The notes beneath the pieces are model-generated. The model was not told the DNA's origin and made no database searches. It was given only the letters and a program-made list of their open reading frames with translations. This document shows, piece after piece, positions 4,578 through 38,830 of a stretch of 64,000 nucleotides of DNA. Location: positions 438 to 64,437 of the forward strand of contig CAYHXO010000006.1 in NCBI GenBank assembly GCA_964360635.1, in the 5' to 3' direction. The stretch is from an uncultured Candidatus Peribacteria bacterium. Its GTDB lineage: Bacteria > Patescibacteriota > Gracilibacteria > UBA1369 > 2-02-FULL-48-14. The position numbers were made by a program, and so were the translations under genes. Every line of letters begins with the position of its first letter. The stretch's first letter is position 1.

Positions 4578-4652
4578 GCCCTCGTAGTTCAATGGATAGA
4601 ACGACCCTCTCCTAAGGGGTAAATACAGGTTCGATTCCTGTCGAAGGCACCA
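4578..4652 (+). tRNA. tRNA-Arg (anticodon CCU), CCA encoded
   Basis: A hand-folded cloverleaf fits. The acceptor stem is GCCCTCG/CGAAGGC with one C-A mismatch, the D stem is GTTC/GAAC, and the anticodon stem is ACCCT/GGGGT with loop CTCCTAA (U33, then CCT). The T arm is ACAGG-TTCGATT-CCTGT, followed by discriminator A and CCA. Confidence 0.85.
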
Positions 4653-10134: not shown

Positions 10135-11442
<1,308 letters not shown>

Positions 11443-11449
11443 AGGGAAG

Positions 11450-11468
11450 CTTGCCTTCGGCAAGTTTT
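11450..11468 (+). terminator. Rho-independent terminator after eno
   Basis: CTTGCC-TTC-GGCAAG hairpin followed by TTTT, 8 nt after the eno stop codon. Confidence 0.6.
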
Positions 11469-11589
11469 AAAAACCGACCCTAATTCCTGTTTGTAGAGAA
11501 TCTATATATAGTTCAATCAAACTTTTATGGGAGTAGAGTCGGTTTCGTGAATGGCGACGAACTCATTCTGTTTTTGTTTTTTTCTGCCT

Positions 11590-11820
11590 TATTTTGGTCG
11601 GGTTTATGGCCGGACCGGGGCTGCCCTTGGCGTGGAAGTGGCCGCTGTAACCGAAGTCAGGGAGCAGGAAACGCAAGTCCACAGAGCGATATGAGAGTCT
11701 GTCTCTCATGGGTTCCCTTGTCTAGAGAACCATCACAAAGCGAGAAAGAAAATTGTCGATGTTTATCGACCGCTTACCATCACGCTTAGTGCTGGGTAAT
11801 CCGCGTCAGGATTACTTTTT
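11590..11820 (+). ncRNA. Candidate structured non-coding RNA, class unresolved; the 5' boundary is uncertain and may begin near 11518
   Basis: A locally GC-enriched block in an AT-rich genome. Several perfect hairpins are present: ATGAGAG-tctgt-CTCTCAT, GTCGAT-gttt-ATCGAC and GGTTC-N11-GAACC. It ends in a strong intrinsic terminator, GTAATCC-gcgtca-GGATTAC + TTTTTGTTTTTGTTTTT (11796-11833). The only ORF here (11547-11789, GTG start) translates to an implausible Arg/Cys/Trp-rich peptide. Confidence 0.45.
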
Positions 11821-12035
11821 GTTTTTGTTTTTGTGTTTTCAATGTGCCTGGGTGAATCCAATGTTTGTCTTACTGAATTCATGTCATTATATCCCCCTTT
11901 GTTTTCTTTGCAACTAATATTACTCGACTAGTGCCGAAATATATTTCGTGGTGGTACATTTTCAGGTAGAGCATGTATCGCTTTCTATGGACTTTTCTTT
12001 TTTAAAAGCTATACTTTGGGCGATTAAATCCCCAA

Positions 12036-12722
12036 ATGACTAGCTTTTCAGTCTTCGACATTGCGGGTCCGGTAATGGTTGGGCCATCGAGCTCACATAC
12101 TGCAGGTGCGGCAAGGATCGGTCAGTTTGCGAGAGCTATTTTTGATGCGACTCCAACTAAAGTACACTTTTTGCTACACGGTTCTTTTGGCGAAGTATAT
12201 AAAGGCCACTCAACAGATAAGGCGCTACTTGGTGGCATTATGAAATTTCCACCTAATGATGAAAGAATTAAGATTGCATTCGAGGTTGCAAAAGAGAAAA
12301 ATATTGAATATGAATTTGAACCTGGAGATTTGGGCGGTGGATACCATCCTAACAGTGTAAAAATTACCCTTGAAAATGCTGAAAGGAAGATGACACTTAT
12401 TGGCTCTTCAATCGGTGGCGGGAATATAGAAATTTGTCAGATAGACGGCTTCGATATTTACCTAACCGGAAGTAGCGCGGAGCAATATTTTACGCTTGTG
12501 GTTGAAAATGAAAATATGCCCGGAATGTTGGCCAAGACAACAACTTTTCTCGGAGACAAAGGAATTAGAATTGTGAATATGCAAAGTTCATATCTTGCTG
12601 GTGAAAATAAGGTTTTGAGCGTTTTAAGTATAGATCAAAGTTTATCACTTGATGAAATTCTCACTCTGGAAATGGAGCCGGGAATTATTTTCGTTAGATC
12701 ACTTAACAAAATTGAGCAATGA
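12036..12722 (+). CDS. sdaAB: L-serine dehydratase, iron-sulfur-dependent, beta subunit (with ACT-like C-terminus)
   Basis: SVFDIAGPVMVGPSSSHTAGAARIG at the N-terminus. The stop overlaps the alpha-subunit start (ATGA). Confidence 0.85.
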   Translation: MTSFSVFDIAGPVMVGPSSSHTAGAARIGQFARAIFDATPTKVHFLLHGSFGEVYKGHSTDKALLGGIMKFPPNDERIKIAFEVAKEKNIEYEFEPGDLGGGYHPNSVKITLENAERKMTLIGSSIGGGNIEICQIDGFDIYLTGSSAEQYFTLVVENENMPGMLAKTTTFLGDKGIRIVNMQSSYLAGENKVLSVLSIDQSLSLDEILTLEMEPGIIFVRSLNKIEQ

Positions 12723-38211: not shown

Positions 38212-38403
38212 GTCTGCATCTCTAAAAATCTGCTTTATTATTTTGGGATGTAGAGTTTTTGAGGTGTGAAATGGTATAGTTAAACGAATTCCGGATTCAT
38301 TTTTGTAGATTCTATGGCTTCCACTTTGTCGGATAAGTTTAAATCCACGCTTCTCGACCAAAGTAGCCAAATCCTTGGCATTTAATCTAGGTAATTTGAC
38401 CAT
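38206..38403 (-). CDS. hicA: HicA-family toxin (second copy)
   Basis: The start was trimmed to MVKLPRLNAKDLATLVEKRGFKLIRQSGSHRIYKN... The track start extends into hicB. Confidence 0.75.
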   Translation of the reverse strand: MVKLPRLNAKDLATLVEKRGFKLIRQSGSHRIYKNESGIRLTIPFHTSKTLHPKIIKQIFRDADL

Positions 38404-38405
38404 AA

Positions 38406-38654
38406 TTAAATGCTTACCTGAAGTGAAGTGACATTTATGGATTTGGGGCTTCTCCAAGTTTGCCCTTCCTCCATTCTGTCCTCAATGTGGAGTTTTATGA
38501 CATCTTTAATATTAAAAAGCGCCTGCTCATAAGTTTCGCCTTGAGTGTAACAGCCCTGTAACTGCGGACAGTAAGCAAAGAAACCACTATTGTCTTCTTC
38601 TATTATCACCGTAAAAAGTTGTTTCTTTTTCATGAAATCGATATATGTTTTCAT
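38406..38654 (-). CDS. hicB: HicB-family antitoxin (second copy)
   Basis: FTVIIEEDNSGFFAYCPQLQGCYTQGETYEQALFNIKDVIKLHIED is present. Confidence 0.7.
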   Translation of the reverse strand: MKTYIDFMKKKQLFTVIIEEDNSGFFAYCPQLQGCYTQGETYEQALFNIKDVIKLHIEDRMEEGQTWRSPKSINVTSLQVSI

Positions 38655-38693
38655 ATAGATTATATTATGGATTAAGTAATAAGGATAGCCTTC

Positions 38694-38722
38694 AAAACTG
38701 ACAAAGTCCTGAATAATTCCTG
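38694..38722 (+). repeat. Right copy of the ~29-bp imperfect direct repeat
   Basis: See the feature at 33135-33163. Confidence 0.7.
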
Positions 38723-38787
38723 AATTTTTCAGAAAGAACTTGACATATTAATCACAAAAAATGTTTAGCATAAAATTTACCTGAAAA

Positions 38788-38805
38788 AGTGTTCCCGGGA
38801 ACACT
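38788..38805 (-). terminator. Terminator of the purH-purP-purP operon
   Basis: A perfect 18-bp palindrome, AGTGTTCCCGGGAACACT, followed on the minus strand by TTTTT. It lies 26 nt past the purP stop codon. Confidence 0.6.
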
Positions 38806-38830
38806 TCTCAATCTATAAATTATAAAATAA

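Follow-up and report, generated by a model that had tools for sequence, protein, structure and literature searches.

A conserved structured RNA, probably encoded on the minus strand, between eno and sdaAB in a Candidatus Peribacteria bacterium and its relatives

The raiA motif RNA, OLE, ROOL and GOLLD are orphan bacterial RNAs with a covarying multi-helix fold that are restricted to particular lineages, have their own transcription signals and are present in RNA libraries, with no function assigned. The element described here is like them in each of these respects. To our knowledge, very few non-coding RNAs have been described for Patescibacteria or bacteria of the Candidate Phyla Radiation (CPR), whose small genomes have hardly any space for sequence without a use. 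The element was found in a 64,000-nucleotide stretch (the window) of contig CAYHXO010000006.1 from an uncultured Candidatus Peribacteria bacterium. It lies in the 593-nt gap between eno (10171-11442, plus strand) and sdaAB (12036-12722, plus strand) and in all likelihood it is a true gene whose product is a new structured RNA, very probably transcribed from the minus strand. A previous reading of this DNA, made from its letters alone (the sequence-only reading), had proposed a plus-strand RNA gene in the gap and named an Rfam scan, covariation in related genomes and RNA coverage as ways to check it.

The 4227 models of Rfam 15 were searched on both strands. The whole window contains only one match, a tRNA (4578-4649), and the region 11400-12080 gives one chance-level match to a long non-coding RNA at E-values up to 10. 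Fifteen loci from the same taxonomic family gave no match and 20 order-level loci gave one tRNA at E-values up to 0.01. The Rfam scan hence yielded no family match, and none of the models contradicts the sequence-only reading, which could not match the element by eye to RNase P RNA, tmRNA, signal recognition particle (SRP) RNA, 6S RNA or riboswitches. A literature search limited to main texts found no description of the RNA. The family is previously uncatalogued and joins the conserved, structured RNAs of bacteria to which no function has been assigned.

Fold, strand and transcription signals

The consensus fold, based on 30 sequences of the same taxonomic family, is a five-way junction made up of a closing helix (P1), two short hairpins, a four-helix long arm capped by a UUCG loop and a P8 hairpin. 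Its parts are as follows.

11582-11750, minus strand: core RNA, five-way junction, approximately 165 nt
11735-11744 with 11583-11592, minus strand: P1
11725-11731 with 11711-11717, minus strand: P2
11704-11707 with 11693-11696, minus strand: P3
11683-11687 with 11623-11627, minus strand: P4 (long arm)
11678-11682 with 11632-11636, minus strand: P5 (long arm)
11663-11668 with 11642-11646, minus strand: P6 (long arm)
11656-11659 with 11648-11651, minus strand: P7 (long arm), UUCG loop at 11652-11655
11610-11616 with 11596-11601, minus strand: P8, conserved CCAUAAAC loop

On the minus strand, this core has 44 pairs. Across the 30 sequences, 97.4% of cells are paired and 31 pairs are compensated, while pairing falls to 33-47% when the partners are slid by 1-3 columns. 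The observed level of covariation was reached in 0/500 shuffles; the pairing and covariation of the core are beyond chance, and the covariation check named above came out in favour of an RNA. Junction strands and loops are near-invariant, and the minimum free energy fold of the window sequence alone has the same five-way architecture as the consensus. A structure drawn earlier by hand for the plus strand has 43 pairs, with 92.6% paired in the 30 sequences compared to 37-47% with slid partners. R1, a covariance model of the family built in plus orientation, scores 138.7 bits on the window core.

Much of the raw structure had been recognized in the sequence-only reading. The G+C-rich block that it described is evident (0.61 at 11600-11699, against approximately 0.35-0.45 in the surroundings), its hairpins ATGAGAG/CTCTCAT and GGTTC/GAACC form helices that are conserved through compensatory changes and its GTCGAT/ATCGAC hairpin is present at 11755-11770. 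The long-range pairing of GGGGCTGCCC with GGGAGCAG that it considered possible is replaced in the consensus by pairing of GCUGCCCU with AGAGCGAU. It gave the length of the gap correctly, but the gap is not the longest open stretch of the window by a crude measure (open reading frames [ORFs] of at least 100 aa), according to which 38212-38830 spans 619 nt. The Rfam scan is empty in that second stretch.

The element is non-coding, because indels of 1-2 nt split its conserved blocks and the overlapping ORFs change frame among relatives. Both the GTG ORF at 11547-11789 and the ATG ORF at 11551-11694 lose their frame, and one relative (locus L009) uses a different frame for the same bases. The preference of the sequence-only reading for an RNA gene over the GTG ORF is upheld by this lack of frame conservation. 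An ORF on the minus strand (11763-11882) was also rejected: it begins at or before the predicted transcription start site, and its conservation is limited to Lys/Thr runs derived from an A-rich tract.

The two strands were compared using the same 30 sequences and 44 pairs per strand. Read on the plus strand, 92.8% of cells are paired and 25 pairs are compensated (97.4% and 31 on the minus strand). The minus strand has 65 further pair types, a number reached by 0/500 shuffles, while the plus strand has 45, reached by 149/500. The score is 0.405 for minus and 0.271 for plus, and consensus energies favour minus in three alignments (-32.6 versus -28.3, -26.7 versus -18.0 and -13.3 versus -8.9). 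Recurrent C·A 'mismatches' on the plus strand, spread over covarying pairs, correspond to G·U pairs when the minus strand is read, and the apical loop of the long arm is then UUCG. Finally, R3, a minus-strand model built from the same sequences as R1 (with a longer and better annotated P1), outscores R1 on 25/29 held-out relatives, by approximately 4 bits on average. Taken together with the promoter and terminator described below, the pairing, consensus energies, UUCG loop and R3 scores very probably place the gene on the minus strand. The strand, promoter and terminator are all well supported.

The transcription signals and the transcript parts outside the core are as follows.

-35 at 11913-11908 and -10 at 11891-11886, minus strand: RNA gene promoter, TTGCAA-16-TATAAT, 10/12 matches
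11751-11879, minus strand: predicted 5' leader of the primary transcript, with an A-rich tract (11818-11833) and hairpins (11794-11817 and 11755-11770)
11569-11582, minus strand: A-rich tract adjoining the 3' side of the core, minus-strand sequence AAAAAAACAAAAAC, motif almost invariant in the family
11549-11568, minus strand: conserved small hairpin, covarying stem (GAAUGG/CCAUUC, GAAAGG/CCUUUC, GAAUAG/CUAUUC)
11469-11545, minus strand: RNA gene terminator, long branched hairpin (11471-11545) with a 15+5 bp helix, followed by a U run (11473-11469)

Transcription is predicted to start near 11879. In both tandem units of locus L009, the minus strand carries the same promoter site, again close to the consensus (TTGATA-17-TATATT), and the -10 varies across genera solely as TAnnnT. 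Promoter-like sites with at least 10/12 matches pointing into the core occur on the minus side of 37/69 loci, against 2, 5 and 2/69 in controls (other strand or flank) and 2/69 in shuffles. The promoter scan did not report the TTCCTG-N17-TATAGT site proposed in the sequence-only reading, and other genera have G+C-rich hairpins in its place.

At the other end of the gene, 18 of the 25 predicted pairs (20 in the 15+5 bp helix and 5 in the small hairpin) are compensated in the 30 family sequences. By a count made without a control, a hairpin closed right before a U run lies approximately 60-155 nt (mostly 95-135 nt) beyond the core in 70/73 loci. The conserved structure is flanked by its own promoter and terminator, as in an independent gene. 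The long stem at 11471-11487/11529-11545 seen in the sequence-only reading is real and conserved, with compensatory changes. Read on the minus strand, a U run follows this stem, which makes it the actual terminator. The A run at 11469-11473 is this U run, and the statement that U-tracts occur only on the plus strand does not hold. What had been called a strong terminator (11794-11833) does contain a hairpin and a T run, but the hairpin falls inside the leader of the minus-strand transcript and the terminator role is lost. Similarly, the GAATG/CATTC hairpin with its T tract (11549-11568) exists and covaries, but on the minus strand it is an A-tract-plus-hairpin module inside the transcript. The plus-strand orientation itself is disfavoured by pairing, promoter, terminator and R3 scores. 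The sequence-only reading was right about the kind of gene and probably misread its strand, promoter and terminator; the strand call went astray because of hairpins with T runs on one strand and was put right only through comparative evidence.

Several further observations concern the parts outside the core. A-rich tracts of the form CAAAAACAAAAA are nearly invariant on both core flanks (11569-11582 and 11818-11833, minus strand); each stands beside a hairpin and reads as A-R-N triplets. In the family alignment (11545-11568), the loop of the small hairpin covaries by eye with four flanking bases (UCGU/ACGA, UCAU/AUGA and UAG/CUA, plus strand), which suggests that loop and flank may form a pseudoknot. 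The motif GGUGAYC in this loop resembles a Shine-Dalgarno sequence, a reading that was dropped because GGCGAUG replaces it in half of the family. The sequence CUAUCA...CUGAGG, which other families have within the terminator hairpin, was considered as hammerhead-like and also rejected, since by eye it does not fit the consensus. One taxonomic family (f13; loci L064, L067, L068, L074 and L079) has a further 130 nt or more of conserved structure on the leader side, including a 14-bp helix, to which nothing in the family of the window corresponds.

RNA libraries, distribution and gene context

Assembled contigs from four metatranscriptome runs (X15, X16, X18 and X19, out of X1-X19), belonging to four studies, were compared with positions 10900-12500. 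Contigs without differences from the window were found in X16 (11583-11730), X15 (11605-11728 at depth 252 and 11583-11634 at depth 133) and X18 (11605-11727); a contig of X19 covers 11615-11736 with two differences. They provide good evidence for an RNA form of the core. The X15 contig starting at 11583 carries 17 preceding letters, which we take to be the tail of an Illumina adapter, and then three letters fitting either sequence. This places an RNA end at 11583-11586, the outer edge of P1, and the X16 contig starts at the same place. Because the contig ends there against adapter letters, a processing site at the A-rich tract (11569-11582) is suggested, and the contigs hint at a discrete core RNA that ends at a defined point next to that tract. 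No contig of the four runs lies over 11440-11547 or 11764-12500, an absence that alone proves nothing. The leader is probably removed from the transcript, since the contigs give it no cover. Over eno, the only contig pieces differ at 4-6 of approximately 40 letters each and presumably come from other organisms. Of the RNA coverage that had been named as a check, the core was found in contigs of all four runs, but these are strandless and only the end at 11583-11586 is marked by adapter letters.

The gap DNA matches 24/27 other genomes of the same taxonomic family; beyond the family, it gives only one 28-nt match in 33 genomes of the order. More distant copies were located with R1 and with R2, a model of 29 sequences from other genera and families. 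Both models were built in plus orientation but still locate the gene, because both strands were searched. R1 matches 59/151 genomes of the order and 0/135 in other orders of the class. R2 matches 111/151 genomes of the order, 19/135 in other orders of the class and 0/143 in other classes of the phylum. Among families of the order with at least 3 sampled genomes, eight are positive for R2 in every genome. Two families of the order are without a match (0/16 and 0/3), absences that model sensitivity may explain. In families without a match, an unfiltered R1 search of 8 loci preceding sdaAB gave one weak true match (L100), the only one of the 8 confirmed by R2. In a search for SDH_beta (PF03315) across the order, the cut-off of 1e-10 was too strict, since even the window's own genome fails it.

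Most genomes, including that of the window, have one copy of the element. Some families have two unlinked copies, and several genera have two or three copies approximately 500 nt apart. In L009 (1433-2420), the whole unit of approximately 497 nt (promoter, leader, core and terminator) stands in tandem between eno and sdaAB, with its own promoter and terminator in every unit. Tandem duplication of the whole RNA gene is seen in L009 and in genera g5, g8 and g9. Two diverged core types often stand side by side, one with the loop UAU and GAUA and the other with UAG and GGAG (plus strand). The two copies in L117, L119, L123 and L127 (families f2 and f9) are unlinked: the first stands beside an F420_ligase-like gene, and the second has an SLH-domain protein or GATase gene on one side and a DinG-like gene (RNase_T exonuclease plus helicase) on the other.

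The RNA gene is tail-to-tail (convergent) with eno and back-to-back (divergent) with sdaAB. Two plus-strand features of these neighbours adjoin it.

11447-11468, plus strand: eno terminator-like hairpin, CTTGCC-TTCG-GGCAAG followed by TTTT (from the sequence; the scan reports the hairpin on the other strand)
11988-12015, plus strand: sdaAB promoter-like site, TGGACT-16-TATACT, 9/12 matches, 20 nt before the ATG

The eno hairpin directly adjoins the terminator of the RNA gene, and the sdaAB site is downstream of the entire RNA gene. Among 22 distinct sequences upstream of sdaAB in the family, approximately 19 show a similar site by eye, and the counterpart in L009 is TTGCTA-17-CATAAT. The RNA is placed outside the sdaAB leader, because sdaAB has its own promoter downstream and the RNA gene diverges from it. 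In the window (11988-12035) and the family loci, the promoter-like site is 12-25 nt before the ATG with no obvious Shine-Dalgarno sequence between, which suggests that the sdaAB leader is very short.

In all family loci with sufficient flank, the element lies between eno (or the gene after eno) and sdaAB. Outside the window's genus, the terminator-side neighbours are eno, MscS-type channels, SLH proteins and GATase. On the promoter side are F420_ligase-like (8 loci), DinG-like (4), MiaB-like (2), formyltransferase (2), DUF881 (2) and CDP-alcohol transferase (1) genes, as well as sdaAB. This neighbour is oppositely oriented in 37/44 loci outside the window's genus, which is the layout of an independent gene rather than a leader. 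The adjacent genes do not form the functionally coherent set of a cis-acting leader, and the element very probably does not lie in the 5' untranslated region of a regulated gene, on the strand of that gene and downstream of its promoter.

Proposed model and alternative explanations

The proposed model for the gene is as follows. A sigma-70-type promoter (11913-11886) would start transcription near 11879, and transcription would end at the long hairpin and U run (11545-11469), giving a primary transcript of approximately 410 nt. Processing would then cleave the A-rich tracts that flank the core and trim what remains to a stable RNA of approximately 150-170 nt (11750-11582), the P1-closed five-way junction. 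Its near-invariant junction strands and loops may form a binding surface for a protein or small ligand, as in abundant housekeeping-type RNAs, and the RNA would act in trans. The fold, its conservation and distribution and the occurrence of the core in RNA libraries are established; the trans-acting, partner-binding role is a guess with an even chance of being right. The explanation as a whole, a processed product of a stand-alone minus-strand gene that belongs to an uncatalogued family and acts in trans by binding a partner, is slightly more likely than not. A bolder proposal, that the RNA is the core of a new housekeeping ribonucleoprotein or ribozyme that is confined to this class of ultra-small bacteria, is expressed at levels like those of other stable RNAs and serves a function for which other bacteria use proteins, or RNAs that these organisms have lost, is rather doubtful.

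The gene may alternatively be read on the plus strand, as an RNA that follows eno and ends at the hairpin and U run of 11794-11833, either independent or a riboswitch-like leader of sdaAB. Several results favour this reading and weigh against the minus strand. Hairpin-plus-U-run modules stand on both sides of the core when it is read this way, and single-sequence energies are better on the plus strand in 26/30, 38/54 and 17/29 sequences. In 54 order-wide sequences, the structure derived from the plus strand is 89.8% paired on plus and 86.4% on minus, with 202 G·U cells and 127 A·C cells, although its G·U cells are mostly in an invariant UUU/GGG stretch. One helix has three consecutive U·G pairs on the plus strand only, and in the window's family it loses its outer part when the minus strand is read; by hand count, the long upstream stem and adjacent hairpin have approximately 61 G·U and 22 A·C cells on plus. 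The proposed model is further limited by the weak single-sequence fold z-score (-1.45), the better annotated P1 of R3, through which its contest with R1 is not purely one of strand, the lack of a control for the terminator count, the predicted nature of the start site and transcript ends, and the RNA evidence, all of it from contigs that do not tell the strand, are no measure of relative abundance and might derive in part from DNA. The plus-strand reading would also fit the position upstream of sdaAB in all family loci with sufficient flank, the tandem copies in some genera (as for some riboswitches) and the potential, seen by eye in the window's genus, of CACAAAGCG (11734-11742) to pair with CGCUUAGUG (11784-11792) before the hairpin. 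However, the core has no plus promoter before it, and the hairpin and U run directly upstream would stop transcription on this strand. Plus-strand consensus pairing is the lower (92.8% versus 97.4%), and the extra pair types of this strand do not stand out from shuffles, 149/500 of which reach the same number. In addition, the sdaAB promoter is a separate one downstream of the element, the neighbouring gene varies across the order (F420_ligase-like, DinG-like helicase, MiaB-like, formyltransferase, DUF881 or sdaAB) and is on the other strand in 5/5 informative loci of one family, and the relative with the smallest genome has no hairpin and U run between the core and sdaAB. The plus-strand reading is considered very improbable.

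The other alternatives accept the gene but assign the RNA a different nature. A catalytic RNA, possibly a self-cleaving ribozyme that makes its own end, would account for the sharp end at 11583-11586 on the outer edge of P1 (X15 adapter letters and X16 contig start) and would fit the multi-helix junction with its near-invariant joining strands; in size the RNA resembles known ribozyme cores. Contig ends are weak evidence, though, and cellular RNases cutting the A-rich tract could equally make this one; with no Rfam ribozyme match on either strand at E-values up to 10, a ribozyme is unlikely. Equally unlikely is a regulatory small RNA (sRNA) that base-pairs with mRNAs via a conserved single-stranded loop. 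The gene has its own promoter and terminator, tandem and unlinked paralogues as in some sRNA families and conserved loops such as CCAUAAAC in P8, but its conserved sequence is mostly within helices and junction strands, and a 165-nt fold conserved across a class is unusual for such sRNAs. The chance is smaller still that the element is a very divergent form of a known housekeeping RNA seemingly missing from these genomes. Of such RNAs, 6S RNA is the most plausible and SRP RNA much less likely; neither was found in the genome, and the element is of similar size, single-copy in most genomes and present in RNA libraries. RNase P RNA and tmRNA were rejected since both are found elsewhere in the genome (contig C10, 160 bits, and contig C24, 119 bits, respectively). 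5S rRNA was also rejected, as it is elsewhere in 5/5 complete relatives; the rRNA operon of the window's genome is not assembled. The 6S model (RF00013) matches neither the genome nor the gap at E-values up to 10, and 6S RNA was rejected because the covariation-supported fold is a five-way junction without the long closing helix and central bubble of 6S.

SRP RNA was excluded because Ffh and FtsY are missing too. RF00169 and RF01854 have no match in the genome, RF00169 is found in 0/41 relatives, and not even a weak match appears at the locus at E-values up to 10. A regular expression for the SRP helix-8 motif gave one match, which is unconvincing and looks like coding sequence. PF02978 (Ffh M domain) and PF00448 (SRP54 GTPase) are absent from the genome, with no DT[AS]GR in six frames, and 5 near-complete relatives yielded only a 22-bit P-loop match for the SRP54-type GTPase or M domain. 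In wider samples, the SRP54-type GTPase (Ffh, FtsY) gave only P-loop matches of at most 24 bits in 151 genomes of the class and 0/121 in the phylum at E-values up to 1e-10. A passage in PMC8080830 states that many CPR bacteria lack two subunits of the SRP.

The proposed minus-strand RNA is thus preferred to each of these. It is a concrete candidate for a core function peculiar to its lineage, since compensatory changes preserve it through most of an order and on into sister orders, a promoter and a terminator belong to it alone, several lineages carry duplicates and RNA libraries from several studies contain it. It also offers a well-defined new fold for tests of ligands, partners and catalysis.

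Comparison with known structured RNAs

The small structured RNAs of known function each share something with the element. SRP RNA is alike only in being a small structured RNA that is missing by Rfam search; fold, partners and helix 8 differ. 6S RNA has a similar length (approximately 150-200 nt) and is likewise present in one or two copies per genome. Maturation from a longer transcript, as in 6S RNA, would take place here as well. The two differ in fold, a long irregular helix with a central bubble in 6S and a five-way junction here. The lysine riboswitch is closer in architecture, being a P1-closed five-way junction of approximately 170 nt with conserved junction nucleotides, but the present element has no Rfam match, is transcribed away from the adjacent gene and has unrelated neighbours. 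It is the raiA motif RNA, OLE, ROOL and GOLLD, the lineage-restricted RNAs introduced at the outset, that the element is most like in kind. In the Rfam 15 scans it has no match to any of them in sequence or structure, and it belongs to a class of Patescibacteria rather than to the phyla in which they have been described.

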